Below are positions 3,183-63,293 of a stretch of 64,000 bases of DNA, one piece after another (positions within the stretch are counted from its first letter, which is position 1; each line of letters begins with the position of its first letter). The notes beneath the pieces were generated by a model. That model saw only the letters and a list, made by a program, of their open reading frames with translations, ran no database searches and was not told the origin of the DNA. This DNA comes from an uncultured Actinomycetes bacterium. Its GTDB lineage: Bacteria > Actinomycetota > Thermoleophilia > Solirubrobacterales > 70-9. The stretch lies in the NCBI GenBank assembly GCA_963797665.1, contig CAWCQE010000023.1, positions 219,845-283,844 of the forward strand, written 5' to 3'. The translations under genes were made by a program, and so were the position numbers.

Positions 3183-3594
3183 CCCATGGATCTTGCGGCT
3201 CAACTCAACAGCCCCCTCTTTCTCGGGCCTACGGGGTTAGCTGTCGGGCTCGCGCTGAAAGAGCTGCGCTACGGCCGGTGTGCCGATTCGCCCCTGGGGC
3301 CTTGGCCCCGTCGGATCCCCCGCTCCCCGGCGCGGCGCACCGGAGATTCGGCATTTCTAAGGCTTGCTAACTGAACGGCGGCAAGAGGCTAACAAATCCG
3401 AAGGCGACGGATGCGTCTCGGACGGAGGGCATCCAGGGAGGCGTGATGGCGAGCCTGGTTCAAGGGGTTGATCCCCGATGAGTGGCGGGTGGACGCTTGC
3501 TTTCGGTATGCGAAAGCGAACGTCCACTGGCGTGCGACTACTTGCCTGCGGCCACCCTCTACTTGCCCTGAACGGCTGGTATGGACCGGCGGCC

Positions 3595-4675: not shown

Positions 4676-4689
4676 GAGGTCGCGCGGGT

Positions 4690-15672: not shown

Positions 15673-16329
15673 TACTGCTGTGGCCGCCTGACCGGTGAGT
15701 CGTCACGGCTACGCGGGCGGCGGGCGACCAGCCGCTCGCCTGGCTCGTGTTGCTCGCCTTCTCCGAGCGCGCCGCGACGTCGTAGGTGTGCCCTGCCCGA
15801 ACGCGGCACGGGCTTTCCAACGGCGCCGAAGGTCGCCTGCGCGGCCGTCACGTCGTTCTTCCAGACCTTCCACGCCCCGCCGTCGACCCGGTAGCGCACG
15901 TCGAACTTGCCGCCCGTGTCGTTGGACCCCGTCGACCACCTGACGCCGAACGAGCTGGCGGTCTTGTTGAAGATCTGAGGCCGGATCTTGATCGTGCCCT
16001 GCCATCCCGGAGCTGCGATGGAGCTCGCAGTAGTAGTGGAAGGATCCCGCCGACGGGATGACGGTGAACCCGCTTGGCTGTGGCTGCGTGAGGTCGCCCG
16101 GAGTAGAAGAGCTTGACGTCCTGGCGGACGTTGTGGCTGGAGGAGGTCGTCCCGTTGGTGCCCCACTGCCAGTGGATGCCGCCCGCGCCCACGTTCTTGG
16201 TCACGGTCTTCGGTCCGAAGGTGAGCGAGTTGTTGGGCCGACCGTGACCGTCGTGGTGGCCCGCCCGAACGCCAGCGCCGGAATGGCAAGCAGCACGAGC
16301 GTCGCGCCGATCAGGAAATAGCGCCTCAT
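15673..16329 (-). CDS. Secreted cupredoxin (plastocyanin/amicyanin-like blue copper) domain protein with C-terminal beta-sandwich (FN3-like) domain; apparent frameshifts
   Basis: Signal peptide MRRYFLIGATLVLLAIPALAFG; copper-ligand pattern H..(HNV)...FHYYCELHRSSGMAG (C-x2-H-x4-M); C-terminal FGVRWSTGSNDTGGKFDVRYRVDGGAWKVWKNDVT...GHTYDVAARSEKASNTS. Confidence 0.55.
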
Positions 16330-16466
16330 CTCAACCTCCCTGTGAATCCCTCGTCTCCCCTGCCTCCTGCGGCGGCACGGTCCGCTGGGCTCAGCTTAAT
16401 GAACACGGGCAGGAACCCCAAGCTCCCCTGCATGCCGCCCATGCCCGGCTGGGACAATCGCACCGA

Positions 16467-17223
16467 ATGACGGAGGCGACCTCGCTCCAACAACCCGTTG
16501 CGCGCGAGCGCTCGCGACAAGCGGGCGGTGCGGTCGAGCTCCGCGGTCTGTGGCGGGCGTTCGGCGACCGGGCGGTTTTGCGCGATGCCTCGATCGCGGC
16601 CCCGGTTGGCAGCACGCTGGCCGTGCTCGGGCCGAACGGTGCGGGCAAGACCACTCTCCTCCGGATTCTCGCCACGCTGCTGCGCCCGACGAGCGGCGAG
16701 GTCAGCGTTCTCGGCTGTGCGCTCCCGCGTGAGGCCTGGCGGGCCCGGGGCCGAATCGGGCTCCTCGGCCACGAGCCGCTCCTCTATCGCGACCTGACCG
16801 CCACGGAGAACCTCCGTTTCCATGGCCGCCTTCACGGCCTCGCGGATGAAGCGGCCCGGCGGGTCGACGAGCTGCTCGCGGCAGGTCCGCATGTCCCGGC
16901 GTGCCGACGAGCTGGTGCGAAACCTCTCGGCCGGCATGGTCCAGCGCTTGGCCGTGTGCCGGGTGCTTCTGCACGAGCCGGAGCTCCTGCTTCTGGACGA
17001 GCCGCGCTCCCATCTCGATCCGGAGGCCGGGGCGCTCGTCGAGCCGCTGCTGGGCCCCGCGCCGGGGCGGACCCGCGTTCTGGTCACGCACGAGGTCGAT
17101 GCCGCTCTGGCCGAGGCCGATCTCGTCCTGGCGCTCAAGGCGGGCGGCTCGGTCGCCTACGCCGGCCCCGCCAGCGGCCTGTCGGCGGGGGACGCGAGGG
17201 CCATCTACGGGGGCGCGCCGTGA
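16467..17223 (+). CDS. ccmA: Heme-exporter ABC transporter ATP-binding protein CcmA-like; apparent frameshift near 16880
   Basis: LAVLGPNGAGKTTLLRILATL (Walker A), LSAGMVQRLAVCRVLL (ABC signature), LLLLDEPRSHLD (Walker B), H-loop VTHE; short (about 250 aa) single-domain ATPase directly upstream of ccmB/ccmC. Confidence 0.7.
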
Positions 17224-46366: not shown

Positions 46367-46440
<74 letters not shown>

Positions 46441-48156: not shown

Positions 48157-48322
48157 CCGTCGGTCGGGCCCTTTCCAATCCTCCGCCCTGGCCCCAGACT
48201 GTTCGGCGTAGACTGGGCCCCGGCCCCGGATCGGACTCTGCTCGGGGTTCCCTGGCTACCGCCTCTGGGTTTACCGGCCCGGGCCATTTCTTGCCCTCTC
48301 GGCGCGAGATACTGCGTAGGCG

Positions 48323-48721
48323 ATGTCGCGGGAGAACGTGGAGATCGTGCTCCGGTCGCTTGAAGCGCAGAATCGGCGAGACCGGATGGCGCTGTCTGCC
48401 CTCGTTGAGCTCGTGTTCACCGCAATAGATACCCCTCAGCGGCCCTCGCGCTCGCGACCAGTCGCATACCCCATCGGAGTGCCACGCCTTGTACGACGAG
48501 TGGTGGTCGATGTTTGAGTACGTCCGATTCGAGACGTACGACGTCGCGGAGGCGGGCTCCGAAGTCGTAGTCCCGAACACCGCCTACATGCGGGGGCGCG
48601 GCGGGATCGAGGTGAGCGCGAGGAGCACGTTCGTGTACACGGTCGAGAACGGACAGATCACTCGCCTTCGGATGTCCAAGAGCGAGCCGAGGCACTCGAA
48701 GCCGTCGGGCTGCGGGAGTAG
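48323..48721 (+). CDS. NTF2/SnoaL-like small protein, paralog 1 (two apparent frameshifts)
   Basis: MSRENVEIVLRSLEAQNRRDRMALSALVELVFTAIDTPQ...EWWSMFEYVRFETYDVAEAGSEVVVPNTAYMRGRGGIEVSARSTFVYTVENGQITRLRM...(shift)...EALEAVGLRE*; paralog of the intact gene 61581..61979. Confidence 0.5.
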
Positions 48722-48728
48722 GCGCCGA

Positions 48729-48780
48729 CTTCTGCTTTGCGCGAGAGCAGCAGCCTTCCGCCTTCACGCGAAAGCGGAAG
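48729..48780. repeat. Tandem palindromic hairpin repeats (degenerate copy of 26-bp family + related CTTCCGC...GCGGAAG hairpin)
   Basis: CTTCTGCTTTGCGCGAGAGCAGCAG (48729-48753) and CTTCCGCCTTCACGCGAAAGCGGAAG (48755-48780) directly after the NTF2-paralog stop codon. Confidence 0.6.
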
Positions 48781-48974
48781 TCCCCGCTGCGGCTTGTGGC
48801 TCTGCGGATGAGGTCGCCTCGAATGCAAAACGCCCGGGAGCAAACGGGGCGAAAAGCTGCTTATTGAACACGAGGCTCGGTCAGGGGGTCCCGGACCCTG
48901 CACGCAAATGGAAGCGCCCGATCTCTCGACCGGCGCGCTGCGCTATCACGGATGCGGTTTTGCTCGGCCGTGCG

Positions 48975-49742
48975 TCAGTGCGTGTACTTCACCAACTGCT
49001 CCATGTCTGACCCGCCGGAGACGTCGACCGCAAGAACCGCCTGGCCGCTGCCCTTGGCATAGAACTTGATCTCAGAGGCGTTTGGCTCGATCGGGGAGAA
49101 GTCCTCGGTCATGAGGGCCGGCTTGAAATGGCCAGCGGGAACCCGGGCCTGCCCGTCGAGAGCGAGAACTCGCGACTGGTCCTCGGCCACGCCCTTCGAG
49201 TACTCCTCGCGGTAGGACAAGCCGACCGTGGGCTTTGCCGGCAGCGCGACCCCGGGCATGTTGCCGTCGACACCCGCCTCCCACGAGCCGTTGTCACGCG
49301 GATGGCCGTGGACGTATTCCACCGTGTGCTCGCCGAAATACCAGACGTTCCCGCACTTGTCCTGGGCGTACCAATCCCTGGTCTTCTCGACCGGCTTGCC
49401 CTGATGCCTGACGACGTCCCTGATAACGCGGGCCTTGATCCCGTCGGCGATCATCTTCGTCCGTCTGGTCGCCTTGATCACGTCCCGGTTCACCGACCCG
49501 TCGGAGTAGTCAAGGACGCGATAGACCCAACGGCTGCCGACGGTCATCGGCCATTGGCGGTTGTTGATGTTCGCGCTGAAGTCAGCCGGGTGGAGATGGA
49601 CGGGGTCAGCCCCCTGCGGCAACGCCGGGCACTGCTGCGAGGTTCCGCCACTTGCCGCCCCACCGAGCGGCAACACCAACGCCGCGGCCAGAACGCCGAC
49701 CGTGGCGGCGCCCACCTTGATCTGGACTGATCTGTTGGCCAT
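48975..49742 (-). CDS. Secreted hypothetical protein (signal peptide, no recognised domain)
   Basis: N-terminal MANRSVQIKVGAATVGVLAAALVLPLGGAASG signal; 255 aa with typical globular composition; lower GC than core. Confidence 0.55.
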   Translation of the reverse strand: MANRSVQIKVGAATVGVLAAALVLPLGGAASGGTSQQCPALPQGADPVHLHPADFSANINNRQWPMTVGSRWVYRVLDYSDGSVNRDVIKATRRTKMIADGIKARVIRDVVRHQGKPVEKTRDWYAQDKCGNVWYFGEHTVEYVHGHPRDNGSWEAGVDGNMPGVALPAKPTVGLSYREEYSKGVAEDQSRVLALDGQARVPAGHFKPALMTEDFSPIEPNASEIKFYAKGSGQAVLAVDVSGGSDMEQLVKYTH

Positions 49743-49851
49743 GCTTGCGCTCCTTTTCGCGTCGGCTCCTTTGGTCGCAGAGTTGTGGCGGAGCGAGATG
49801 AAATGCCCGTGAAAAGACGTCTATCGGGGGCACGGCGAGATCCGGGCGTTC

Positions 49852-50058
49852 ATGGACGAGTTCTTCGCGAGTTGGGACGAAGTTCGTATAGAGATCGCTT
49901 ACGGCCCGGTAGAGGTCGAGGACGGCCTCTTGATCGCCGGGAACGTCACCTCACGTGAGGGCATCGAAGTTCAGGCTCGAAGCGCATGGCTGATCACGCT
50001 TCGGGACGCCAGCAGACCTCGCTCACGCTCTTCCAGACCAAGCAGGAAGCCCTCGAAG
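49852..50058 (+). CDS. NTF2/SnoaL-like small protein, paralog 2 (truncated/frameshifted)
   Basis: ...IEIAYGPVEVEDGLLIAGNVTSREGIEVQARSAWLITLRD...(shift)...LFQTKQEALEAAGLRE*; same C-terminal peptide and same downstream hairpin as paralogs 1 and 4. Confidence 0.4.
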
Positions 50059-50069
50059 CCGCCGGGCTG

Positions 50070-50095
50070 CGGGAGTAACGCTTTATCGACTTTTG
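50070..50095. repeat. 26-bp palindromic hairpin repeat copy
   Basis: CTTTTGCTTTGCGCGAAAAGCAGAAG (10-bp arms, GCGCGA loop). Confidence 0.6.
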
Positions 50096-50347
50096 CTTTG
50101 CGCGAAAAGCAGAAGACTTGACGGATGCCGATCACCTGTCATCGCTGCGGCCGCCCGCCCGATCCCGAGCGCGCGGACCTCGACGGCTAGCTGATCCTCG
50201 ACGCGGGAGGACGGCTGGACGCTCGTCGTCTGTCCGGACCGCCAGACGGACGCCGAGCGCCAAGGCGTCCGGTTGCTGCCCGGGAAGCGCGGCTAAGGCT
50301 GACCCTCTGCCCGCCTCGACGTCAAGCGGGCCCGAAGCCGATTCGCG

Positions 50348-51022
50348 TCAGCTGAGGCTGAACGGCGGATACCGGTCGGTGATCAGCAGGAACGCGTACG
50401 CCGTAACCCGGTTTCCCCATCGCAAGACGCCCTCGACGAAGTGGAACAGGCCCTCCGGGTAGCGGCCGGTGAAGAGGATCGCGAACCAGGCGATCACGAC
50501 ACAGACGAAGGCCGCGATCCAGAGGAAGAAGAGGACGATGTAGTGGGGGATCGCCAGAAACCACTTGACCAGCGGCAGCCACCGGTTCAGATCCCGCTCC
50601 ACGTCCGGGTAGGGAAAATCGAGATGCACCGACTGCTGCTCGTCGGTGGACGGATAGCGATCGTCCATCAACGCCAGATAGACAGCGACTCGGTTGCTGA
50701 ACCGCAGGAACTGGAGGTTCCAGTCGTACCACCAGCGGGGGTACTTGAGGCGGAAGACGATCATCAGCAGGGTGGCAAGGAAAAGGATCCCGGCGACGGC
50801 GACGGCGCCGCCGCCCCACCCGTTGCCGCCGCCGCCGAGCGCCGCGAGCACGATCAGGATCGGGATCACGGTGAAGATCCGAAGCCCCGTCGTGAGGCGG
50901 TTGAGCGGCCGATCGGGGTAGTCGACCGAGAACGTCAGCGGATAGGCGCCATCGGATGGCGCGGTAGGGGGCTCGGGCTGGGTTGGCTGGGTCGGACCCT
51001 CAGGTGCGCCGGGCTGTTCCAC
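50348..51022 (-). CDS. DUF4389 domain membrane protein
   Basis: ...YPLTFSVDYPDRPLNRLTTGLRIFTVIPILIVLAALGG...RYPRWWYDWNLQFLRFSNRVAVYLALMDDRYP...ITDRYPPFSL matches DUF4389 conserved blocks; GAGGAGG RBS + GTG start at 51020-51022. Confidence 0.65.
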   Translation of the reverse strand: MEQPGAPEGPTQPTQPEPPTAPSDGAYPLTFSVDYPDRPLNRLTTGLRIFTVIPILIVLAALGGGGNGWGGGAVAVAGILFLATLLMIVFRLKYPRWWYDWNLQFLRFSNRVAVYLALMDDRYPSTDEQQSVHLDFPYPDVERDLNRWLPLVKWFLAIPHYIVLFFLWIAAFVCVVIAWFAILFTGRYPEGLFHFVEGVLRWGNRVTAYAFLLITDRYPPFSLS

Positions 51023-51250
51023 TTGCGCCCTCCTCTCGCCTCTCGGCCGGACCCTATAGCGCTCGCGCGGACGGTGCAAGCGCGAAGAGCTACTACACGG
51101 ACAGGGCGAGGTGAAAGCCTCCTGCCGCGTTTGCGAAGCACCCAGGTGTTGGGGAGCGCGGGGCCGCCCCAAGCCCATCCCTAGCGCTGTGCTTGACGAC
51201 CCGTGGTCCGCGGCTGCCGCCGCTGGAGGTATGAATCCAGATGTGACCGG

Positions 51251-51468
51251 GCGCTTCTGCTTACACGCGAGGGTGTCGCACAAACGGTCTCCGCGACATG
51301 CACCCTACGGATGCTCAGATAGGGCCTAGAGCGGCTGGGGAGGCGACTTGCAGGACGAGCGCGAGCCGGACGAGGCCGAGGTCGCCCGGATTGTTAACGC
51401 ATGCGGAGAAGCGCTTCTAACGGCTCGGTTGGGGTTTGTGCGACAGCCTCACGCGAAAGCAGAAGCGC
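51251..51468. repeat. MITE-like element: about 35-bp inverted repeats (containing half-sites of the 26-bp hairpin family) flanking about 150 bp
   Basis: Left GCGCTTCTGCTTACACGCGAGGGTGTCGCACAAAC (51251-51285) versus right GTTTGTGCGACAGCCTCACGCGAAAGCAGAAGCGC (51434-51468): reverse complements with few mismatches; no ORF inside. Confidence 0.45.
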
Positions 51469-51642
51469 GTGCGCGGCACTTGCTGCGTTGGTGAGCATTC
51501 GCTTCCAGGCTGGACCAGCCGCATGCCCGTCCCGCGGACGCTGCCCGACAGCTAGGTGCCGAGGTTCCGAAAGTGGGCCAAGCAGTGGCACATTCGATTC
51601 TGGGAACAGCGCGACAGTCAGGCCCACTCGCTAGACGACTGA

Positions 51643-52050
51643 TCAGCTACAGGGAAGCTCGGCGCCGCTGGACTCCACCGCCCGCCGAACCGCGTTGCCA
51701 CACTTGACGCGAATGTGAAGCCCGTACCTCCGCGCCAGTCTGGTGGCCGTGACCAAGGCGCGAAGGCCGCGCGGATCGACGAAGCTGACCCGCCTCAGGT
51801 CGAGGGTGATCGACGCGGTCTGGGGCCTCTCGATGATCCGTCGCAGGGAGTCGCCGAGCGTCCACGCGCTGCTGACGTCGATCTTGCCGACCGGCCGGAT
51901 GGTCGTCGAGTTGCCGATCTGCTCGGTCAATACCGAGAGCCGCTTCGAAGCCGTCGCTGATTCCTCCTCAAGGTCGGGTCGAGGACCCGCTTTGCGTCCT
52001 GCTCGGTGATTGCGACTCGTTCTTCGTGCTACCGCTACCCGGGTCGCCAC
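51643..52050 (-). CDS. STAS-domain protein (anti-sigma-factor antagonist, SpoIIAA/RsbV-like); N-terminal extent uncertain
   Basis: ...LSVLTEQIGNSTTIRPVGKIDVSSAWTLGDSLRRIIERPQTASITLDLRRVSFVDPRGLRALVTATRLARRYGLHIRVKCGNAVRRAVESSG matches STAS fold including the conserved phospho-acceptor region (D.S.V.F.DS-like). Confidence 0.6.
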   Translation of the reverse strand: MATRVAVARRTSRNHRAGRKAGPRPDLEEESATASKRLSVLTEQIGNSTTIRPVGKIDVSSAWTLGDSLRRIIERPQTASITLDLRRVSFVDPRGLRALVTATRLARRYGLHIRVKCGNAVRRAVESSGAELPCS

Positions 52051-52376
52051 GCATCAAGCAGTGAGATTCCTGACTGACCGCAAGCGCCGCGCTCATTCCC
52101 CCGAAAACAGGACGGGGCCGCCGGAAATCGACGGCCCACGCCTCTGCCCACCTGCGTCCTCAGGGGGACGGACCAAGCTATACCCGTAAGTTCCGAAGCG
52201 ATTCGCACGAAGGCGGTCACATTCCCGACGGCGGCGGGACGCACGAGGATGATCCGTGCGTCGTAGCGGGAACGAATCGGGCCACCTCCGCGATTACGGT
52301 CGTTCCTCTTGGGCTCGGCCGGCGTCGGGGACTGATCGAGTGACCGCTGGTCGGGCCCGGTCTTGCCCTGCAGCTG

Positions 52377-52768
52377 TTACGAAGCGGTCCCCGCGAGCGG
52401 CATCTCGATCCAGACGGAGCCGTGGGAATCCCCATGAAGCGATCCCCAGTGCTGGGCGAGGGTTCGAGTCAATAGACGCCCCAACTCCGCTCCCCGAGCT
52501 CTGGACGCCGCGGTCGAAGCTCGTAGGCTGCCGCGCCGTCCCTCACCTCCACGCGCAGGTGGCGATCGCCCAACTCGATGCGCAGGGTGATCGGGCGGCT
52601 GTCCGTCTCCTCGCTTCGCACCGCGCCGGCGACGAGCTCGCTGACTATCAGGTGCAGGTCGATGAAGGCGTCGCTCTCGAGCCGGTCGCGAAACTCTTTC
52701 AGGGCCTCCCGCGACCACCCGGCGCTCTCGGGCTTCGCGGGCAGTTCGACTGTCAAATACTCCTGCAT
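52377..52768 (-). CDS. RsbW/SpoIIAB-like anti-sigma factor (HATPase_c Ser kinase), apparent frameshift
   Basis: MQEYLTVELPAKPESAGWSREALKEFRDRLESDAFIDLHLIVSELVAGAVRSEETDSRPITLRIELGDRHLRVEVRDGAA (N-box/helix), C-terminal ...GSVWIEMPL in second frame; paralog of 60776..61135. Confidence 0.5.
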
Positions 52769-52932
52769 CCGCCTCTGATCCTGATCTACCCCTTGCGGAT
52801 CTAGGCATGCTCCGATTTTGCGATCGATTGTTGGCTTCCGGTTAAGCCCAGACGGTGGGCGAGCCAGATAACCTGGCCCGGTTGCCTCGACGCACCCAGT
52901 TGGAAACCTGATAGACCCGGATGGCCTGAAAC

Positions 52933-53292
52933 GTGGAGCTCGGTGTTGAAGCGACCCCGATCGGCGATGGTCACGCGCTGCTCATCGCCGTTAGCGGCGA
53001 GCTTGACCTTTCGACCTGTGATCAGCTGAAGCCGGCCGCCGACGAGGCGGTCTTTGGACACCGGCCGCTGATCCTCGACCTCTCTGGCTGCACGTTCATC
53101 GACTCGAGCGGGCTGCGTCTCGTCCTGCAGGTTGCCAACGGCCTCGCCGGGGACGAGGTGCCGATGGCGGTCATTGCCGAGTCCAACGTCCGCAAGATGT
53201 TCTCGCTTACGGCGATCGACCAGACGATCCCGCTGTTCGACACCCGCCAGGAAGCCCTCGTGTGGCTCGAGGGGAAGCCGGCGGCGAGCTGA
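52933..53292 (+). CDS. STAS-domain anti-sigma-factor antagonist
   Basis: LLIAVSGELDLSTCDQLKPAADEAV..RPLILDLSGCTFIDSSGLRLVLQVANGL; divergent from the RsbW-like gene. Confidence 0.7.
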   Translation: MELGVEATPIGDGHALLIAVSGELDLSTCDQLKPAADEAVFGHRPLILDLSGCTFIDSSGLRLVLQVANGLAGDEVPMAVIAESNVRKMFSLTAIDQTIPLFDTRQEALVWLEGKPAAS

Positions 53293-53539
53293 AACGTCTC
53301 GCACTGGTCGATCAGGTCCGACCATTCCGCAACCACCTCGGGACGCAATTGCTCGGGAGCCGCTCGGCGAGCGCGTGGACTCGCCGCCCCGCGTTTAGGT
53401 ATCGAGAGTTTCGGAAGCTCCTCCTTGGCTTGGCCGGTCGGAGAACCCACTCTCCGTCGCGGGACGACCGACAGCCAAGCTGCACTGGAGCCCTGGGCCC
53501 CCGGGGCTCCAGCTACGTCTGCGCGATGCCGCCCTCACC

Positions 53540-53592
53540 AACGCCGGGCTGCGGAAGTACGCAGCGCTTCTGCTTTGCGCGAAAAGCAGAAG
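53540..53592. repeat. Ghost 3' end of an NTF2-paralog gene (…NAGLRKY) plus perfect 26-bp hairpin repeat
   Basis: GCCGGGCTGCGGAAGTAC matches the GCCGGGCTGCGGGAGTA(A/G) gene ends at 48705/50047/61590, followed by CTTCTGCTTTGCGCGAAAAGCAGAAG (53567-53592). Confidence 0.55.
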
Positions 53593-53899
53593 TCACGCCT
53601 GCAGCCGCACCGCTCAACAATCCGTGCGTGTAGCGAGAAACGAATCGGCCTCCCGATCTGCACTCACGACCGGTACCGCTTTTGGGACCGACTGCCGTGT
53701 CCGATGCGTCCAGATCGTCCACGCTCGGGGACGATGGGGACGCGAGGGACGCCCACGGACGCATCTACACCGATTGCCGCCCGGCTGGGGGCCGAAAGGT
53801 CGCCGGTTCAGATCCGGCCGCCCCGACTATGCGAAAGCCCGCTTCCGAAGCGGGCTGTCGGCATGTCGGCCGGTCCTGTGATCCGCCGGCGAAGGGCTC

Positions 53900-54266
53900 G
53901 TGGTACCAGCCGTGGTACCGGGCGGGGAGGCCGGCGACCCTCGGCGCGCGATAGTTACGCTCTGCTCGTGGAGCGGAGGGAGATCCTTCAGGCCGCCCCG
54001 TTCGGGGAGCGCATTCGCGGAGCAGGAGCTGGACGAGCTCGCCGAGTACTTCGTGGAGACGGATAAGTGGCGCCGGTTGTACGCGGGCGACGTGGACATT
54101 GTCTACGGGCCAAAGGGCTCCGGGAAAAGCGCCCTCTACTCGCTGCTGGTCATCAAGCAGCAGGGAGTTATTCGATCGCGGCATCCTGATCGTCCCGGCG
54201 GAGCCTGCGACGGTGACCAGCCCGGCACACGCGTCCACCTCTTCGCGCCGCGACCGCCTGGCGTGA
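53900..54266 (+). pseudogene. Truncated P-loop NTPase (N-terminal Walker A fragment only)
   Basis: ...AFAEQELDELAEYFVETDKWRRLYAGDVDIVYGPKGSGKSALYSLLVIKQQG...(shift) ELFDRGILIVPAEPATV... then stop; only about 100 codons of an ATPase, no downstream continuation. Confidence 0.3.
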
Positions 54267-54298
54267 TCTCCGCCCCAGGCGGGTAGCGGAGCCTCCGA

Positions 54299-55288
54299 AT
54301 GACCGGGTTCCTGCTCGCGGCGGCATTCGCGCTGATTGTCGGCGGCGCGATCCTGTTCACGAACGCGATCGAGTGGGCGGGCAAGCGTCTCGACCTCGGT
54401 GAGGGAGCCGTGGGGAGCCTGCTGGCCGCAGTCGGTACGGCCCTGCCGGAGTCGGTGATTCCCGTTGTCGCGGTGCTCGCGGGCGGCGAGTCCGAGGAGG
54501 TCGCGATCGGCGCCATCGTCGGCGCCCCGTTCATGCTGGGCACGGTCGCCATGCTGCTGGTCGGCGCCAGTGCGCTGGCGTTCCGCCGATCGCGAAGCAG
54601 CGGCTCGGAAGTGACCCCCGACGAGCGCTCTCTGCGTCGCGACCTCCACCTCTTTCTACCCTGCTTCGCCATCGGCCTCGCCCTCGGGCTGATCGACTCG
54701 ATGCCCGTTCACATCGCCGGGGCGGTCGGGTTGCTGATCGCCTACGCAGCCTACGTCCGGCGGACGGTCCGACACAGCGGCGAGAGCGAGGACGCGGACG
54801 AGCTCAGGCCGCTCACGTTCGACCCCACCAAGGAAGACCCGCCTCGCAACGTCGCGATCGTCGCCCAGGTCGTTTTCGGGCTGTTGATGATTGTCGGCGG
54901 CGCCGAGCTCTTCGTCGAGGAGGTCGTGACAGTCGCCGAGGCGCTCGGCATCTCCGCCCTGGTGCTTTCCCTCGTGCTCGCGCCGCTCGCGACCGAACTC
55001 CCGGAGAAGCTCAACAGCGTGATCTGGATGCGCCGCGACAAGGACACCTTGGCGGTCGGCAACATCACCGGGGCGATGGCGTTTCAGTCCACCGTGCCGG
55101 TCGCCCTCGGTCTCGTGGCGACCGACTGGGACCTCGACCGGTTCGCGCTCGCCGCCGGAGTCGCTGGCCTCGTCGGCGGCGCGCTGGCCCTGTGGCGGCT
55201 CCCGAAGGACAGGCTGGGAGCACCGGTGGTAGTCGCCTGGAGCGCCCTGTTCGTCGGCTTCGTCGCCTTCGCCGCGCTGAGCCCCTAA
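54299..55288 (+). CDS. Ca2+:cation antiporter (CaCA) family sodium/calcium exchanger (YrbG-like)
   Basis: Two alpha-repeat regions GSLLAAVGTALPES... and ...SLVLAPLATELPEKLNSVIW (conserved GTxLPE motifs), 10 TM helices. Confidence 0.8.
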   Translation: MTGFLLAAAFALIVGGAILFTNAIEWAGKRLDLGEGAVGSLLAAVGTALPESVIPVVAVLAGGESEEVAIGAIVGAPFMLGTVAMLLVGASALAFRRSRSSGSEVTPDERSLRRDLHLFLPCFAIGLALGLIDSMPVHIAGAVGLLIAYAAYVRRTVRHSGESEDADELRPLTFDPTKEDPPRNVAIVAQVVFGLLMIVGGAELFVEEVVTVAEALGISALVLSLVLAPLATELPEKLNSVIWMRRDKDTLAVGNITGAMAFQSTVPVALGLVATDWDLDRFALAAGVAGLVGGALALWRLPKDRLGAPVVVAWSALFVGFVAFAALSP

Positions 55289-55367
55289 CTGCGCTTGAGC
55301 TGAATCGAGATTGAAATGGCGCGAAGAAAGGAGCGCAGCCCTGGAATGCGTGCGGGGCCGGAGACGC

Positions 55368-57013
55368 TCAGGCGATCCGGTGGTCGAACACCGTCTCCAG
55401 CCGCGCCCCCTCGGCCTGGGGGTCGTGCACAGTCTTCGAGATAGTGAGACTCGCCTCACGCCCCTCGAGGCTCAGGGTCGCGATCTGGTTGTCGAAATAG
55501 GGGCCGCCGGCGAAGCGCCAGCGGATGCCCGCATCCTCGACCCCCGCCGCACCGGCGAGCATGCGGAGGAGCAACTCCGCGGGCCGCGTCGTCGCGGCCC
55601 TCACTGCGCGGCGCTCGTGCGCGTCCAGGGCCTTGCGAAACGGCGAGCACACCGCCTGATAGACGGCGCTGCTCACGTTCGCATCGCGCCGAAACGCCAC
55701 CTCCGCGAGGAACGCGTGGTGGACATCGCCGGAGAGAAGGCAGATTGAGGCCGGAGGGCGGCCACGCGCGCCGGAGCCCACCTCCTCGAGCAGACGGGCG
55801 AGTCGCGTGAACGAGCGCTGAAAGGCGCCCCAGTGGTCGCAGTCGACCGCGCGCCTCATCCGCTCGCCTACCGCCGCCACCGCATTCCCCCAGGCCCCGC
55901 CGCAGATCGCCTCGTTCCAGGCCTCCAGGTAATGGAGGCCGGGCGCGAGCAGGAAGGGATCTGAGGTCCCGATCAGCAGGTGGTCGAAGTCGCCGCGCAC
56001 CTTTTCCTGGACCCAGTCCCACTCCTCCTCATCGAAGATCGAGCGGCGGCCTTCCTCCAGGACGCGGCCCGTACGCACGTCCATCACGATGAGCCGCGTC
56101 GAGCCCAGATCGCGGTAGTAGCTCCACCGCTTCCCCTCTCGCTCACGATCCTCCTTGGCGGCGTACTCCCGCAAAATGGGCCCGGCGTCGTCGAGTTCGC
56201 GAACCTTCCGGTATAGGTGGTTTTGCTCTAGCTCGCGTGGCGAGAGGTTGCCAATGAATTGGTAGATCCAGTACGACACGAGTCCGGCGACCACGCGCTC
56301 GGGCCACCACGCCAGATCGCGCATGTCCTCGAGCCAGGAGCGGGAGATGTTCCAATCGTCGTGCATGTCGTGATCGTCGATCACCATCGCGATCGAGGTC
56401 GTCGAGAAGAGCCACCGAATCACTGGATCGCCCCACGACTCCAGGTAAAGACGGGTGTACTCCTCGAAGTCGGCGACCTCCTCCCCGGGGGGCGGGTCGT
56501 GTCCCTTCTTAAGCGGATGAAGTCGAGCGCCTGCGGCGAGACCTCGTCCGCGTACACCTGGTCGCCGAGCAGGAGCACGAGCTCCGGCCAGCGATCTGGC
56601 TGCGACTCGATCATCGACAGCGCGAGGGTGTGGAGGGCGTCCAGGCCGCGGCCGCGTTCGTCCTCGTCCTTCGGAAGGGTGTACGGGGGGTGATGGGGGA
56701 GCGCCGCCCGGCAGGAGCCAAAGATGATGTCGGTTCGCGCGTTCGGGTCGACGGTGCGGATGATGCTGCGCGGAAGCTCAGAGCCGGGATCGGGCCAGCG
56801 CGGCTCGCCGTCTAGAGAGACGCCGTACTCGTAGGCGGTCCCCGGCTCGAGACCGTCGATGCAGACGAGCGCGTAATGATGCCCTTCGACCCCGAACGTG
56901 GGGGTGCGGTGGCCGAGCGCCTCGACCTCGCACGGCCCGTCCGTCTCCACCCACAGGACGGCCTCCGTGTCCGAGACGTATCGCAAGACGGGGCCGAGGA
57001 GAAGCTCGGGCAT
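55368..57013 (-). CDS. PhoD-like alkaline phosphatase / metallophosphatase; one apparent frameshift near 56470
   Basis: N-terminal beta-sandwich (…VLWVETDGPCEVEALGH…), LLLGDQVYADE, MVIDDHDMHDDWN, ...GDVHHAFLAEV... PhoD metallophosphatase motifs across ORFs 56420..57316 and 55368..56423. Confidence 0.7.
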
Positions 57014-57126
57014 GCTCTGGTTGATACCCGGATCCGTCCGAGTCACCCGCCGGCCCGACAACATCCCCGAAACCCGCCCACCGGCCGAACGTGGCTGCCG
57101 TCCGACCTCTCCGCTGAGCGAACCCG

Positions 57127-57486
57127 GTGAGGGCGAGGCGACCGGCGAGGAGTCGAACACCTGCCCTCCTGTCGCGGTACACCCCCATCGAGCTCTTCTA
57201 CCGCAACCAGGGCGAGGAGAACTCGGGCTACCTGACCAACTCGTTCCTGACCTCGATCGCCGAGGCGGCGGGGGTAAAGGACATCGACAAGTGGAACAGC
57301 GATCGGCAGGACTCAAGGTGGGATGCGGTTCTGTCGAAGAACAGTACCGAGGCTCAGAATCTTGGCTTCACCGGCACCCCGTCGATCCTCGTCCAGGGAC
57401 CGGGCGGGCGTAAGCCCTTCGCGGCGATCCCGACGTTCTCGCAGATCCAGACCGCGGTCAAGGCTGTCCGGCAACGACCCGATTGA
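57127..57486 (+). pseudogene. C-terminal fragment of a DsbA-like thioredoxin-fold protein (CxxC-containing N-terminus missing)
   Basis: ...YTPIELFYRNQGEENSGYLTNSFLTSIAEAAGVKDIDKWNSDRQDSRWDAVLSKNSTEAQNLGFTGTPSILVQG... corresponds to the helical insert and C-terminal beta-strand region of DsbA-like proteins; no upstream thioredoxin motif. Confidence 0.4.
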
Positions 57487-57506
57487 GGGAGTCGGCAGCC
57501 GCAGGG

Positions 57507-57531
57507 CTGTCGCTTTGCGCGAAAGCAGAAG
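57507..57531. repeat. 26-bp palindromic hairpin repeat copy (degenerate left arm)
   Basis: CTGTCGCTTTGCGCGAAAGCAGAAG immediately after the DsbA-fragment stop. Confidence 0.5.
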
Positions 57532-57836
57532 TTTCCACTCACTCTATTGTCCGACCGCTTCGCAGCTCCGGAGTGAGCGGTCTGAACCTTGGGTTGTTGT
57601 CGCCGAGACCAGCCGCGTATGGCCCCGACCCGCCACAGAGAGAGCGCGCCAGCCACCATCAGCAACAGCCGACGGCCCGAGCAAGCCACGCATTCGCCAC
57701 GGCGCGCTGGCTCACCTCGTTGATCTCGCCGACCGCTAGCTCGAGCAGCGTCTCGTCATGCAAGAGGGGCAGCTTGACGGTTGCGTTAGGACGGCAGGTA
57801 TACGTAGGCGGCCCGAGGTCGGGTAGACAGTAACCC

Positions 57837-59425
57837 ATCCGACCGCTTCGCCTCTACCTGACCCTCTCCGGGGGAGCATCGCTGGGCGCCTACGAGGCTG
57901 GGGCCGCGGCCGGCCTCGCCCTGGCAACGCGCTATCTCGACGCCGAGGAGGGCCAGGAGGTCACCGTCGATGCGATCGGCGGTGCGTCCGCGGGTGCGCT
58001 GGTGAGCTTCTTCACCGCCCACGCCCTACTCGAGGGTCTCGATCCCGAGGCGCTCCTGCACGAGACGTGGGTCGAGCGCGTCACGCTGCCGTTGCTCCGC
58101 GCCAAAGACTCCAACGCGCTGCTCTCCTTCGACGAGCTCCGCGAGCGCGTGCCGGAGGTGCTCGCCTCCGACGGGCCGGCGGCCGCCGATCGCGACGGCA
58201 TCGACTACCGCCAGCGGCGCCCGCTCGCCCTGCACGTGCAGGTCACCGGCCTGCGCGGCCTCACCTATTCGATCCAGGGCCTGCGCCAAGACGCGCCGGT
58301 GACGGGCGCGACCTACGCCGACTGGGGTCGGTTCGAGCTTCGCCCGGGCGGCGGATCGCAGCAGATGCTCGAGCCGGAGGGTCGCTCGCCCTGGACTTCG
58401 TCCTCGCGTCCGCCGCGAGCCCTGGGGGCTTCGCGCCGGAGCTACTCGACCGCCGCCCGGACGTTCCAACCTACGAGCAGCATGGGATCGAGGACTTTCC
58501 CGACTCCGGGCACCTGTGGTACACGGACGGTGGGCTGCTTGGCACGCGGCCGCTCGGTCGCGTGATCGCCGCCGGTCAGGAGCTCCACGGCGTCGATGAG
58601 CGCGCCCACCGTCTCCACCTGCTGATCGACCCGCGCTCCGAGAACGCCGCGCTCGACACGTGGAGCGACCCGGACGCCGACCCCAGCTGGCAGACCGGCG
58701 CCTCGCGCGCCCTCGCCATCCTGTCCGAGCAGAGCCTCTTCGACGACATGCGCCGGATCGCGGAGGAGAACGCGAGGATCGAGTGGGTCGAGCGGCTCGC
58801 GGAGAGGCTGGCCCCCAGGCTCGATGACGACGCCGCCTCCGCCCTGCGAGAGTTCATCGCCGAGGTCGAGTCCGACAGCCCGGAAGGGCACGGCGGAGAT
58901 GGGGAGACCCGGGACGGCGACCTCACCACGCTCCTGGGCCGTGCGCTACGAGAGATCGGCGGCCTCGTCGGTAAGGAGCGAGTCTCGATCGATGTGATCT
59001 CGCCCTTGGTTCTGGCCGGCAGCGGAGACGAGGAGGTCGGCGCCCTTTTGGCCGGAGAGTTCATGGGAGATTTCGGCGGCTTCCTCAGCCGCAACCTGCG
59101 CGCGAGCGACTTCGCGCTCGGCTACCAGAGCACGATCGCATGGCTGGACCGGGGGTTGCCCGCCTGCGGGGTGGACGAGGAGACCGTGCGCCGGACGGTG
59201 GAGTTCGTCGAGTCAAAGCGCCGCTACGACCCCGACGAGATCCGAAGCGGAGAAGCCGAACTCTCCGACCTCTCACTCACCGACCGGTTCGAGCTCGTGC
59301 GCCTTGGCACCCACGCCGCCAGGGTGCTCGGCGCCGGGATCTTCGACGTGCGCTCGCGCATCCCCGACTCCCTCGGCCGCGCGATCGAGCGGACGCGGGA
59401 GCGACTGTCGGGGGGCGGAAGCTAG
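57837..59425 (+). CDS. Patatin-like phospholipase family protein (about 530 aa); no canonical start codon in frame, one apparent frameshift near 58390
   Basis: LYLTLSGGASLGAYEAG (oxyanion GG/SGG block), GxSxG nucleophile IGGASAGAL, DGG catalytic-Asp motif LWYTDGGLLGTRPLGRVI; long C-terminal helical extension. Confidence 0.6.
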
Positions 59426-59484
59426 ACGGCTCGGCGCTGCCATTCCGCGCACGTCATTGCCACCATCGCTAGGCGATCGGCCGG

Positions 59485-59829
59485 CTAGGACTCGGTTTCG
59501 CCCCTGCTGGTGAGCGGCTGCGCCGCCCAGAACCAGCTAAAGAGGATCACGGCACCGACCATCGCCGCCGCCAGAAACGCAAGCCCCGCGATCGAGAGCG
59601 AATTGGAGACGAGGAGGACATGCTCCTTGTCCTTTTGGCGGAAGTGGAGGCGATGCCATGCAGACGGGGCGATCAGGAGCACTGACGCCACCGCCGTGGC
59701 GCACAGGGTGCCGAAGAACGGTGCCCGCTGGAAGGAGGTGGTGGAGGTGAATCCCTGGGCCAAGCGGGCGTAAAGCGGGTCTCCCAGCGCCGCGTCGCTG
59801 CTCTCAGAACCCGCATCAGCTTCAACCAT
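59485..59829 (-). CDS. Small membrane protein (2-3 TM), unknown function
   Basis: Hydrophobic segments FFGTLCATAVASVLLIAPSAW and LSIAGLAFLAAAMVGAVILFSWFWA; 114 aa. Confidence 0.4.
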   Translation of the reverse strand: MVEADAGSESSDAALGDPLYARLAQGFTSTTSFQRAPFFGTLCATAVASVLLIAPSAWHRLHFRQKDKEHVLLVSNSLSIAGLAFLAAAMVGAVILFSWFWAAQPLTSRGETES

Positions 59830-59848
59830 TCCGCTTTAACCTCCGCCG

Positions 59849-60181
59849 ATGGACTGGGCACAGCTGCCCTTCGGCACGCGGGAACACCGCGTCGCGTTCA
59901 ACGAGGCGGCATGCCGGCATCTCAACGAGCGCAAGGCGCAATGGATCGACCACGGACTACCGACCGCCGGCTTCCGATGTGAGTGCGGAACCATGCACTG
60001 CGGTTCTCGGTTTCGCCTCTCTCAAGAGCATTGGGATGAGGCGCGGGCGCGAGCTGACCGCTTCATGGTCGCGCCCGAGCATGTCGCACCGGATGTAGAG
60101 GTGGTGGTCAAGGAGTACCCCGAGTTCTGGCTCGTCGAGAAGCGGGGCGAGGCCGAGGAGATCGTCGAGGATCTGGAGTAA
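59849..60181 (+). CDS. Zinc-ribbon-like small protein, paralog A (CEC-x4-C family, unknown function)
   Basis: ...AFNEAACRHLNERKAQW...FRCECGTMHCGSRFRLSQEHWDEARARADRFMVAPEHVAPDVEVVVKEYPEFWLVEKRGEAEEI aligns along full length with 61186..61521. Confidence 0.5.
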   Translation: MDWAQLPFGTREHRVAFNEAACRHLNERKAQWIDHGLPTAGFRCECGTMHCGSRFRLSQEHWDEARARADRFMVAPEHVAPDVEVVVKEYPEFWLVEKRGEAEEIVEDLE

Positions 60182-60662
60182 CGCCCTCGTCGTTCGCCTT
60201 GGCGCGGAAGATCCGGTTAACCCACTAAGCCCATTGCGGCGATGTGAAGCGCACCCTCGTTGGGTTGCGGGCTACTACACAGGTGCCAACTCCACGGGCG
60301 TTCACAGGCCACCGCGTACGAAACTGCCGTAGCGGGCGGATTCCGGCCAGTGGCGCGGGTAGCCTCCGGGCACGGGGTACGGAGGATGAGCGTTCATAGC
60401 TACCGCCTCACCTGTCGAGGCGTATTGTCGCCGTACGTGATTCTCGAGTTGTTTCGGCGCGGCGTCTACCGCGCTTGGGGCGGTCCCGAGCGTCCGGCGT
60501 GGTAGCCAGGAATGGTTGCCGGCGAGCGCTGACGGCCTCTGGCATCCAACGCGAGCGATGCAGACATCCGGTCCTTCTTGAACGTGGCTTGTTCCGCTCG
60601 GACCAGCCTCGCTCACGCCCGTCAATTTCGCGGGATAGAGTGGGCTCACGTGTTCCTGAGCG

Positions 60663-60688
60663 CTTCTGCTTTTCGCGCAAAGCAGGAG
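60663..60688. repeat. 26-bp palindromic hairpin repeat copy (inverted orientation, loop TCGCGC)
   Basis: CTTCTGCTTTTCGCGCAAAGCAGGAG = reverse complement of the consensus with 1 mismatch. Confidence 0.55.
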
Positions 60689-60775
60689 CGCGACTCTAGG
60701 CGAGGGCTCAGCCGCTCCCTCTTCCCCTTAACGCAGGCGTTCGAAGGACGGCCGCCGCGGGTACCGGAGCCAGTG

Positions 60776-61135
60776 ATGGCCATCAGGCTGGAACTGGAGC
60801 CGGGGCCGGAGGCCGGGCACCAAGCGCGCGACGAGGTTCGCTATCTCCTCCGCGACCGGGTAGACGACGGCTTGCTAACCGACTTGCAGCTGATCGTCAG
60901 CGAGCTCGTGACGAACTCGGTGCGGTACGGACCGGGCGAGACAATCGAGGTTGGGATCGCGGTTGCTGAGGGTGGTTCGATCACGGGCGAGGTCGAGGAC
61001 CACGGCAGGGGTGAAGTCGCGATGCGTGAGATCACTGACGAGGGCGGTGGCTTTGGCTTGCGGATCGTCGACGCCCTGGCGAGCCGCTGGGGCGTCCATG
61101 AAGGCAGCACCCAGGTGTGGTTCGAGCTCAGCTGA
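60776..61135 (+). CDS. RsbW/SpoIIAB-like anti-sigma factor (HATPase_c Ser/Thr kinase)
   Basis: MAIRLELEPGPEAGHQARDEVRYLLRD...LTDLQLIVSELVTNSVRYGPGETIEVGIAVAEGGSITGEVEDHGRGEV...GGGFGLRIVDALASRWGV (N, G1, G2 boxes of GHKL kinases). Confidence 0.65.
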   Translation: MAIRLELEPGPEAGHQARDEVRYLLRDRVDDGLLTDLQLIVSELVTNSVRYGPGETIEVGIAVAEGGSITGEVEDHGRGEVAMREITDEGGGFGLRIVDALASRWGVHEGSTQVWFELS

Positions 61136-61185
61136 GCCCCCTAGCCCGACCCGCGCTTAGAACCGGACGGGGGTAGCCTCTGTGC

Positions 61186-61521
61186 ATGGCCGGAGAGCGC
61201 GAGCGGCGGCTGGGGGAGAACGAGACCATCTTCCGGGCTGCCAACGAGCGCATGGCAAGCTGGGAGGAACGAGACCGCCTCGAAGCGGTCGAGCTCTACT
61301 TCTGTGAGTGCGCCGACCCGACCTGCACGCAGAAGGTCAGGCTACGCGGCTCCGACTACGAGCGGGTGCGCGGTGATCCGACCCACTTCTTCGTCGTGCC
61401 CGGGCACGAGGTCGCGGATGTGGAAGCGGTGCTCGAGTCGCACTCGGATTGGGTCCTTGTCGAGAAGGATGAGGCCGAGGCCCGCGACGTAGCCGAGGAA
61501 ACGGACCCCCGGCAGGACTAG
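61186..61521 (+). CDS. Zinc-ribbon-like small protein, paralog B (CEC-x4-C family, unknown function)
   Basis: ...ETIFRAANERMASWEERDRLEAVELYFCECADPTCTQKVRLRGSDYERVRGDPTHFFVVPGHEVADVEAVLESHSDWVLVEKDEAEARD; shares CEC...C, F.V.P.H..DVE.V and W.LVEK blocks with paralog A. Confidence 0.5.
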   Translation: MAGERERRLGENETIFRAANERMASWEERDRLEAVELYFCECADPTCTQKVRLRGSDYERVRGDPTHFFVVPGHEVADVEAVLESHSDWVLVEKDEAEARDVAEETDPRQD

Positions 61522-61550
61522 GCCACACCCCTCAGCGGGGTGGCGCGCAG

Positions 61551-61575
61551 CTTCCGCGTCTCGCGCAAAGCAGAG
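61551..61575. repeat. 26-bp hairpin repeat copy (inverted orientation, degenerate) serving as 3' element of the minus-strand NTF2 gene
   Basis: CTTCCGCGTCTCGCGCAAAGCAGAG; on the minus strand follows ...CTGCGGGAGTAG (…GLRE*). Confidence 0.5.
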
Positions 61576-61580
61576 TGGCG

Positions 61581-61979
61581 CTACTCCCGCAGCCCGGCGG
61601 CTTCGAGGGCCTCGTCCCGGCTCGGATATTCCGTGATCTTCAGGATCTTGCCGTCCTCGACGCTGAACACTCGAAACAGGTCCGTGTGAATCCAGGTCTG
61701 CGCGTCGCTGCCCTTCAGGCCGCGTCCCGCTACCCGCTCTACGGTGACGACACAATCTCCGGCTTCGATCATCTCGTCGGCTTCGACCCGGTACTCGTCG
61801 TACGAGTCGGACAACGAATCGAGGAATCGCGTGATCTCGTCGATTCCCTGGAAGGTCCCCGAGCCGCCAACGAGCACCAGCTGTATTTCTGGGTGCCAGA
61901 TTTCGTGGAGAGTGGACCAGTCTCTCGCGCCCCGCGCGGCGACATCTCGCCGCACGACCTCCACGTTCCCCTGCGACAT
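61581..61979 (-). CDS. NTF2/SnoaL-like (ketosteroid-isomerase-fold) small protein, intact paralog
   Basis: MSQGNVEVVRRDVAARGARDWSTLHEIWHPEIQLVLVGGSGTFQGIDEITRFLDSLSDSYDEYRVEADEMIEAGDCVVTVERVAGRGLKGSDAQTWIHTDLFRVFSVEDGKILKITEYPSRDEALEAAGLRE*. Confidence 0.65.
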   Translation of the reverse strand: MSQGNVEVVRRDVAARGARDWSTLHEIWHPEIQLVLVGGSGTFQGIDEITRFLDSLSDSYDEYRVEADEMIEAGDCVVTVERVAGRGLKGSDAQTWIHTDLFRVFSVEDGKILKITEYPSRDEALEAAGLRE

Positions 61980-62184
61980 CGCCTACGCAGTATCTCGCTC
62001 TTGCGAATCGGTCGCGGCGTTTTTGCGCGGCGCAGGCGCAGAGTGAGCCGGGCGCCAGTCCAAGAAATAAGCGGACCCTTACCAAGAGCCGCAGCCACCG
62101 AGCGGGCGAGTTCCTGGACAGTCGGGACCGCGATGCGGAACGACGTGGCCGGCCGCGAGATGCTTAGCATGGCCGTACCTCGAC

Positions 62185-63096
62185 ATGGGCGATGATGCGG
62201 AGAGAAACGAACGCGAGCTTCGGGGGCTGCGCCTCGAGGTCGACGAGCAACGGCGCGATATTCGCAAGGCCGACGATCGAGAGCGCCGTCAGGACACGCT
62301 ATTAGCCCGCCTTCGCGACGAGGCGGCGGTGCGTGATGACGAGGCGGCCGCGCTGCAGGATCGTCTCGAGGCCGCCGAGCATGAGCTCGGGGACCTGCGC
62401 GCGATTCGGGATGCGCTTACCCCGCCCGAGTTGCCGCAGCGGCCCGGCTTGGATCTCGCCGCGGCCTTCTTGCCCGCCATCGCCGAACAGGTAAGCGGCG
62501 ACTTCTACGTGGTGGCTGAGGGGCCCCAGGATTCCACCGTTCTCGTAGTCGGCGATGTAGTCGGCCACGGTTTGAACGCGGCACGCCGTTCAGCGTTCGT
62601 TCGGACAGCGTTTGCCGCGACAGCCCCCTTCTCCGACGATCCGTGCCGGCTGCTGAGTTGGGCGAACACCGCCCTGGTCGAGCGGGCCGGCATCACCAGC
62701 GAGTTCGTCACCGCCGGCTGCGTTACGTATCTGCCGGACGAGCAGCTCCTGCGCTGGGCCTACGCCGGCCATCCCCGGGCGCTGTGGCTGGACAGCGGCC
62801 AGGAACTCGTGGCGCCCACGCAGGGAACCCCGCTCGGGATTCGGCCGGACCTGGGACTCACCGAAGGTTCGCAGCGGTCGGTGGCCGCCGCGGGAGTGCT
62901 GCTCTACACCGACGGCCTAACCGAAGCACGGGGCGCCGACAGGCGGTTCGGGATCGGCGGCGTCCGGGCCGCCCTGGGCGGCCTTAGCCGGCCCTCACCG
63001 GCCGAGGCGGTCGCCATCCTGCGCGCGCGCGTTGCCGACTTCGGGTACGGCGCCCTGACTGACGATCTCTGCCTACTGGCCGTCCGCGTCCGCTAG
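62185..63096 (+). CDS. PP2C-family Ser/Thr phosphatase (SpoIIE/RsbU-like) with N-terminal coiled-coil
   Basis: SGDFYVVAEGPQDSTVLVVGDVVGHGLNAARRSAFVRTAF (metal-binding D..GDV.GHG), ...LLYTDGLTEARG (second Asp block); N-terminal 100 aa Glu/Arg-rich coiled coil. Confidence 0.75.
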   Translation: MGDDAERNERELRGLRLEVDEQRRDIRKADDRERRQDTLLARLRDEAAVRDDEAAALQDRLEAAEHELGDLRAIRDALTPPELPQRPGLDLAAAFLPAIAEQVSGDFYVVAEGPQDSTVLVVGDVVGHGLNAARRSAFVRTAFAATAPFSDDPCRLLSWANTALVERAGITSEFVTAGCVTYLPDEQLLRWAYAGHPRALWLDSGQELVAPTQGTPLGIRPDLGLTEGSQRSVAAAGVLLYTDGLTEARGADRRFGIGGVRAALGGLSRPSPAEAVAILRARVADFGYGALTDDLCLLAVRVR

Positions 63097-63293
63097 CGAT
63101 TGAGCCGGTCAGTCGGACCCTGCTGCGCCAAGGGATCGGGCTGCACGCGGGCGAGGACGCGGCTGCCGTCTGCTTTGAGCACGATGCAGCCGACGTGGCC
63201 GGCGATCAGCGGCTCCAGTTCGCCTTTCAGGAGGTACCGCGAGGCCCTCGCCGTCGTTTTTCCGCACCCCTCAGCACCTATCTTCCTCGCTAG

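Follow-up and report, generated by a model that had tools for sequence, protein, structure and literature searches.

What is the origin of a long palindromic structure in a non-coding gap between two genes of an uncultured actinobacterium? The window, by which we mean the whole stretch of 64,000 nucleotides that was analysed, carries two arms of 35 nt each at 51251-51285 and 51434-51468, which a repeat search and a recount show to be complementary at 31 of 35 positions (89%) across a spacer of 148 nt. The initial annotation, which was made from the sequence alone, had described these arms as near-perfect reverse complements, and the description stands. At the base composition of the window (69.7% G+C) the probability of 31 or more matches in 35 is 2.7e-13, and across 64,000 positions and 300 spacings about 5e-6 such arm pairs are expected by chance. 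The inverted pair is a non-chance feature, and it is the single inverted repeat that the repeat search detected in 50500-52200. The explanation that we favour, and hold to be very probable, is that positions 51269-51450 are a 182-bp MITE, a non-autonomous derivative of an insertion sequence of the IS1182 family, which landed in the loop of a REP-like hairpin.

The key to the structure is that each of the 35-nt arms is a composite. Read from the outside to the inside, an arm starts with 14 nt that form one half of the stem of a host hairpin, continues with a target-site duplication of 4 bp (TSD, ACGC) and ends with a 17-bp terminal inverted repeat (TIR, GAGGSTGTCGCACAAAC), and the two ends of the element are identical at 16 of the 17 TIR positions (Table 1). 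The apparent inverted repeat is 35 nt long, and not 17, because one half of the hairpin stem remains on each side. The proposal that the pair had been built from hairpin half-sites was correct for the outer 14 nt, while the inner 17 nt turn out to be TIRs of the IS1182 type. If the element and one copy of ACGC are removed in silico, a hairpin of 32 nt is restored, whose stem has 14 bp and whose loop has 4 nt, GCGCTTCTGCTTAC-ACGC-GAAAGCAGAAGCGC. This agrees with the suggestion that a large insert occupies the loop of a hairpin, since the loop that the MITE occupies is that of a member of a hairpin family. The interior was likewise correctly noted to be about 150 bp without an ORF; it is 148 nt, and its only reading frames, of 40-48 aa, are expected at such a G+C content. 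The element thus has the TIRs, the direct duplication at its edges, the small size (MITEs being roughly 50-500 bp) and the lack of a transposase gene that characterize MITEs. It also shares its ends with autonomous, transposase-encoding elements of 1.38-1.72 kb, all of which come from outside the source genome.

Table 1. Positions of the element, of the hairpin that it interrupts and of related features in the window.
Feature	Position	Strand	Remarks
5' stem half of target hairpin, GCGCTTCTGCTTAC	51251-51264		Host sequence, REP-like hairpin family; 13/14 complementary to 51455-51468
TSD, left copy, ACGC	51265-51268		Former hairpin loop; identical to 51451-51454
TIR, GAGGGTGTCGCACAAAC	51269-51285	+	IRR end for the element read from IRL to IRR on the - strand; agrees with the other end at 16/17 positions
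MITE core, 148 bp, without transposase	51286-51433	-	ORFs of 40-48 aa; no conserved interior RNA structure
TIR, GAGGCTGTCGCACAAAC	51434-51450	-	IRL type, followed inward by CCCC; exact match to the transposase-start-proximal end of full-length elements
TSD, right copy, ACGC	51451-51454		Identical to left copy; family statistics
3' stem half of target hairpin, GAAAGCAGAAGCGC	51455-51468		Repeat search and recount
Whole mobile unit, very probably a 182-bp IS1182-family MITE	51269-51450	-	Family sizes, TSDs and homologous copies
Intact hairpin copies	48729, 48755 (48729-48780); 50090-50115; 53567-53592; 57507-57531; 60663-60688; 61551-61576		Tolerant pattern
STAS-domain ORF	51643-52050	-	Flanks the gap
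DUF4389 membrane-protein gene	50348-51022	-	GTG start preceded by GAGAGGAGGG

The host part of the arms belongs to a family of short hairpins. The outer 12 nt (GCGCTTCTGCTT and AAGCAGAAGCGC) recur in the window as a hairpin stem, and they match, without a difference, the stems of the intact hairpins at 53564 and 60660. The consensus of the family is CTTCYGCTTT-N5-6-AAAGCRGAAG, 25-26 nt in length. With a tolerant pattern we count seven intact copies, all of them in the last quarter of the window, compared with none or one in shuffled sequences, so the link that had been drawn between the arms and a 26-bp hairpin is well founded for the outer 12-14 nt. Several of the hairpins lie 1-13 nt past the stop codons of SnoaL-like paralogues, the 3' ends of which are repeated too (families D6 and D7). 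Seven further hairpins of the CTTCYGCTTT type are found on a related contig of 18 kb (L002).

In order to place the inner part of the arms we scanned bacterial and archaeal genomes, one for each species and 596 Gb in all, for GTTTGTGCGACASCCTC, the inner 17-mer. At least 119 loci were found, a number that is uninformative in itself because by our estimate some 140 matches are expected by chance in 596 Gb; it is the context of the matches that carries the argument. Judged by record titles, 52 of the 119 matches listed carry names from the class Thermoleophilia (Solirubrobacterales, Thermoleophilaceae, Conexibacter, Gaiellaceae or similar), 16 are from unclassified Actinomycetota and 20 are from Dehalococcoidia. 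Twelve loci from Pelagibacteraceae were rejected as members of the family: both of their flanks are common to all twelve, and they represent an unrelated conserved gene. At the loci outside the Pelagibacteraceae, the 17-mer is the last conserved stretch before the flanks diverge. One side of it is repeated within a genome, while directly beyond ...GCCTC each copy has a sequence of its own. A conserved end that abuts copy-specific flanks is the signature of a transposon end.

Does this end have a partner? Allowing for up to 3 mismatches, we searched for an inverted 17-mer within 4 kb inward and found one for 58 strand-wise matches among those listed, where four elements, including that of the window, are counted from each end. 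The distances between the partners are bimodal, with one class at 110-250 bp (many at 178-185 bp, in particular at 180-183 bp) and another at 1.38-1.72 kb. The window element, with 182 bp, falls into the short class. The long class contains a single ORF of about 465-485 aa, which starts some 50 nt inside the end that consists of the exact repeat and CCCC. For locus L108 this ORF scores 308.3 bits against the NCBIfam model NF033551, 'IS1182 family transposase' (cutoff 270), and the ORFs of L108 and L078, one each, both match DUF772, DDE_Tnp_1 and DDE_Tnp_1_6 in a Pfam scan. A DDE transposase that exceeds the curated cutoff is found in the full-length relatives and not in the window element itself. 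By tblastn, the transposase is present in 38 repeat-carrying loci among the matches listed. Elements of the IS1182 family are about 1.3-1.9 kb in length and have terminal repeats; the 14 full-length copies among the matches listed, with 1382-1718 bp between the repeats, lie in this range. In other genomes, the 17-mer found at 51269-51285 bounds full-length IS1182 elements as well as MITEs. The initial annotation had read the structure as MITE-like, and this reading is borne out by the TIRs, the TSD and the dozens of similar-sized elements with the same TIRs in related genomes.

The conserved end at variable flanks had first led us to suspect the end of an IS200/IS605 element (TnpB omega-RNA) or of a REP-targeting element of the IS110 type. 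Both ideas are ruled out, since both ends are inverted repeats, the TSDs are of 4 bp and the ORF is an IS1182 DDE transposase.

Some of the other matches are worth recording in their own right. In L024, a stretch of 932 bp (4012-4943) lies between terminal repeats of the IS1182 type and hosts, instead of a transposase, an ORF of 180 aa that looks cupin-like by eye. This could be a non-autonomous derivative with cargo, or else two unrelated ends. The Dehalococcoidia MAG CBDAOL01 has many copies with the same 17-nt TIR for which the second end was not found (L015, L039, L069, L072, L073, L075, L089, L115, L117, L124 and L127). The Dehalococcoidia genome CBDFIB01 likewise has many copies (L050, L054, L078, L079, L082 and L113), and four of these are complete elements of about 1.6 kb. 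In most of the copies from these two genomes the flank past the repeat starts with AGCTA or a close variant, and such flanks suggest a different target preference in that Dehalococcoidia lineage.

We compared the 4 nt outside each end in 48 non-redundant two-ended elements among the matches listed. The duplication is perfect in 34 of the 48, and at least three of the four positions match in 43. A look for TSDs at the edges of the window element, as had been recommended, gives ACGC on both sides. The sequence beyond the TSD is informative as well. The next 10 nt on the two sides are complementary at 5.5 positions on average, compared with 2.8 at random positions of the same loci, and a complementarity of at least 7/10 is found for 31% of the elements compared with 0.75% of the controls. 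Many sites in Thermoleophilia have the form ...GCTTTC-NNNN, element, NNNN-GAAAGC..., and GAAAGCRG directly after the TSD is recurrent at many insertion sites of the element family. A preference for palindromic or hairpin targets, as known for some IS1182 members, is evident in this family, and the window site, a 14-bp stem with a 4-nt loop, is an instance of it.

These observations can be combined into a simple scheme for the window element. It keeps the two 17-bp TIRs that a DDE transposase would recognise and has no transposase gene, and therefore it could move only with the enzyme of a full-length relative elsewhere in the genome, presumably by mobilisation in trans. Integration would have been into the 4-nt loop (ACGC) of the 32-nt hairpin. 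A 4-bp staggered cut, followed by repair, would then have duplicated the loop and left one stem half on each side. In the 64-kb window tblastn finds no match to the IS1182 transposase and there is no second copy of the element, a search for the TIR with up to 3 mismatches giving only chance-level extras; mobility in this genome is for this reason something that we infer. More tentatively, it is possible that this clade of IS1182 elements, with its MITEs, recognises extruded hairpins by structure rather than by sequence, cuts exactly across the 4-nt loop, which is thereby duplicated, and keeps both stem halves; a REP-like hairpin family of Thermoleophilia would in that case be its preferred 'safe' landing pad across many species.

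Has the 182-bp element moved as such? We scanned metagenomes with GTCGCACAAACCCCAACCGAGC, which consists of the repeat end and the adjoining interior (the last 22 of the 28 nt GAGGCTGTCGCACAAACCCCAACCGAGC), and obtained 11 contigs. The 28 nt GAGGCTGTCGCACAAACCCCAACCGAGC at the IRL end are identical in all 11 of the metagenome copies that were fetched. The nearest homologue is L134 from a soil metagenome, an element of 183 bp that is 82.5% identical over all 182 nt of the window element; its TSD is CGCG, and the element is located in a different hairpin (CCCGCTCTG / AAGAGCGGG). In L141 the identity is 84% to the first 115 nt of the element (51450 down to 51336), where the contig ends. Elements of exactly 182 bp, with both ends on the contig, are found in L132, L133, L138, L139 and L142. 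The insertions in L138 and L139 are the same, as the flanks are identical, which leaves four distinct insertion sites among these five copies. In the wider family the interior diverges fast, and alignment is limited to the TIR and, on the IRL side, at most some 60 nt. When the 620-bp intergenic region was compared by BLAST with all loci, it matched only through its repeat and hairpin parts. Homologous copies of 182-183 bp are thus found in other contexts, in metagenomes and in other MAGs, with one copy in the 64-kb window. On the evidence of these alignments, the 182-bp unit is a repeated one that has probably moved as a unit. The initial annotation had named the absence of any other copy, anywhere, as the outcome that would speak for a chance juxtaposition of hairpins; instead, the same TIRs bound dozens of elements, and L134 matches over the full length elsewhere.

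The same locus in a close relative provides a further point of comparison. The contig L002 (ENA ERZ25039532) encodes a DUF4389 protein that is identical to that of the window. Its DNA is 96.5% identical to the window over 50126-51094 and 87% identical over 51630-52230, and the stretch between these does not align. The MITE is absent from this intergenic place in L002, where an uninterrupted double hairpin is found instead, GCGCTTCTGCTTTC-GCGT-GAAAGCGGCAG and then TGCTGCTTTTCGCGCAAAGCAGAAACGC. The first stem half and the loop are identical to the - strand flank and TSD of the window element, which reads GCGCTTCTGCTTTC-GCGT followed by GAGGCTG... of the element; on this comparison, the hairpin of L002 fits an insertion of the MITE into that loop. 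That said, L002 is an imperfect empty site and not a clean one, because it has a double hairpin and the sequences on both hairpin sides also differ between the strains to the point of being unalignable. The unalignable parts are 51023-51642 of the window and 9777-10000 of L002, and about 160 nt and 150 nt beside the hairpin are unique to the window, matching nothing that was fetched. L002 also has, at 15947-16693, an rve-type integrase (IS3/IS481-like) that the matching part of the window lacks, and this too is a sign of rearrangement between strains in the region. The more distant syntenic homologues L003-L012 have only coding sequence in common with the window, and nothing intergenic.

Could the structure be explained in other ways? 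One alternative is that it is the remnant of a full-length IS1182 copy that lost its interior in place and never transposed as a short unit. In favour of this, there is one copy only in the window, and its ends are those of full-length elements. However, copies of 182-183 bp that are homologous over their full length lie in different flanks, each with its own 4-bp TSD (L134, L138, L142 and L132), and independent deletions would not repeatedly yield the same 182-bp product; we consider the in-place origin very unlikely. The least probable of the explanations, to which we give hardly any credence, is a REP doublet (BIME-like), in which a REP-associated tyrosine transposase, or else recombination, has spread two inverted host hairpin repeats around a linker. 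The initial annotation had offered this as an alternative to a MITE, and it would account for the outer 12-14 nt, which come from a family of REP-like hairpins that are common in this section of the window, and for the two such hairpins that stand side by side at this place in L002. Yet two complete REP units are not present: each arm is half of one hairpin, with no complete palindromic unit. Moreover, the inner 17 nt are the TIRs of IS1182 elements with a DDE transposase in many genomes, and the insert is flanked by a direct duplication of 4 bp.

The remaining alternative is a structured ncRNA gene, or a 5'-leader element of the DUF4389 gene, that is closed by the long stem; the possibility of an sRNA in the core had also been raised at the outset. 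Both neighbouring genes are on the - strand, and this strand does fold better than shuffled sequences (z = -5.35); of the four mismatches between the arms, two turn into G.U pairs there. But a good fold is common to all long inverted repeats, and the stable folds of both strands are driven by the inverted repeat. A scan of the whole window with Rfam 15 at the gathering score gives no match in the region, at E<=10 over 50900-51800 there are only two chance-level matches, and a scan of 50950-51750 finds no promoter-like or terminator-like site. An RNAalifold consensus of 15 family members holds only 13 pairs, all in the terminal repeats, and includes no compensatory change; the core has neither an Rfam family nor a conserved interior structure in this alignment. 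In addition, L002 has no such element in the corresponding intergenic region, and copies of the element sit in unrelated contexts. An RNA gene or leader is accordingly very unlikely, and the sRNA proposal is not upheld.

How does this element compare with known systems? The transposons IS1272 and TnSha1, of the IS1182 family, insert into hairpins or palindromes, often terminators, without primary-sequence specificity (PMC5678879, PMC4923244), and palindromic or hairpin targets have been described for some IS1182 members (Siguier et al. 2015, as cited in PMC4923244 and PMC5678879). The elements described here resemble these staphylococcal ones in transposase family, in a hairpin or inverted-repeat target and in having little primary-sequence specificity. 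For IS1272, however, it is reported that part or all of the target hairpin is deleted and that there is no target duplication (PMC4923244, PMC5678879), whereas in the present elements both halves of the stem are retained and 4 bp are duplicated; at hairpin targets these 4 bp are the loop bases. This loop-duplicating and stem-keeping mode was previously only drawn as a hypothetical route for the IS1182 family, 'pathway c' in the model of PMC5678879. The 48 insertion sites are a modest natural data set on the targeting of hairpin loops by a DDE transposase, and they complement the staphylococcal work on IS1272, where the hairpin is deleted rather than split.

IS1182-derived MITEs are also known from Methanosarcina acetivorans, where elements of 160-169 bp are paired with ISMac2, one of which, of 160 bp, is reported to have a direct repeat of 4 bp (PMC3852290). 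These are likewise short non-autonomous elements whose terminal repeats are common to an IS1182-family element. The present case differs in its host phylum (Thermoleophilia, Actinomycetota), in the sequence of the TIR and its length (17 bp rather than 25-26 bp), in a total length of 182 bp and in an insertion site that is visibly a hairpin loop. The hairpin family of the window is, in turn, similar to the REP/BIME sequences of enterobacteria and pseudomonads, which are short repeated extragenic palindromes, often located just downstream of genes, and are landing sites for some insertion sequences. Unlike a BIME, the structure of 218 bp consists of a single hairpin that a transposon has split, and not of two REP units.

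The kind of element, its family and the hairpin preference are already established, as both hairpin targeting and MITEs with 4-bp TSDs have been published for IS1182. What is new here is this member, the sequence of its repeat and its spread in Thermoleophilia and some Chloroflexota. The element is real but ordinary mobile DNA, which opens no new question. For annotation, an odd palindrome of 218 bp and an intergenic region that is hypervariable can both be put down to a transposon insertion. In addition, GAGGSTGTCGCACAAAC together with a 4-bp duplication is a signature with which IS1182 elements and their MITEs can be masked or annotated in Solirubrobacterales and related uncultured soil Actinomycetota.

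The gap that houses the element is non-coding, 620 bp long (51023-51642) and bordered by the STAS-domain ORF and the DUF4389 membrane-protein gene. The latter is downstream of the element, with its start codon at a distance of 246 nt, and we infer that an effect on the neighbouring genes is conceivable, including on the regulation of the DUF4389 gene. The surroundings, from 48300 to 63100, hold a cluster of partner-switching-type genes: STAS proteins (51643-52050 and 52933-53292), an anti-sigma-type kinase with a HATPase domain (60578-61135) and a SpoIIE/PP2C phosphatase (62185-63096). The same stretch has several SnoaL-like paralogues and two paralogous proteins of 110 aa without a Pfam match (59849-60181 and 61186-61521). 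A scan of the window for tRNAs and tmRNAs found only a tRNA-Arg (anticodon CCT) at 46367-46440 on the + strand. Further away, at 3211-3363 on the - strand, Rfam identifies a c-di-AMP riboswitch (ydaO/yuaA leader) with 72.5 bits, compared with a gathering score of 38.
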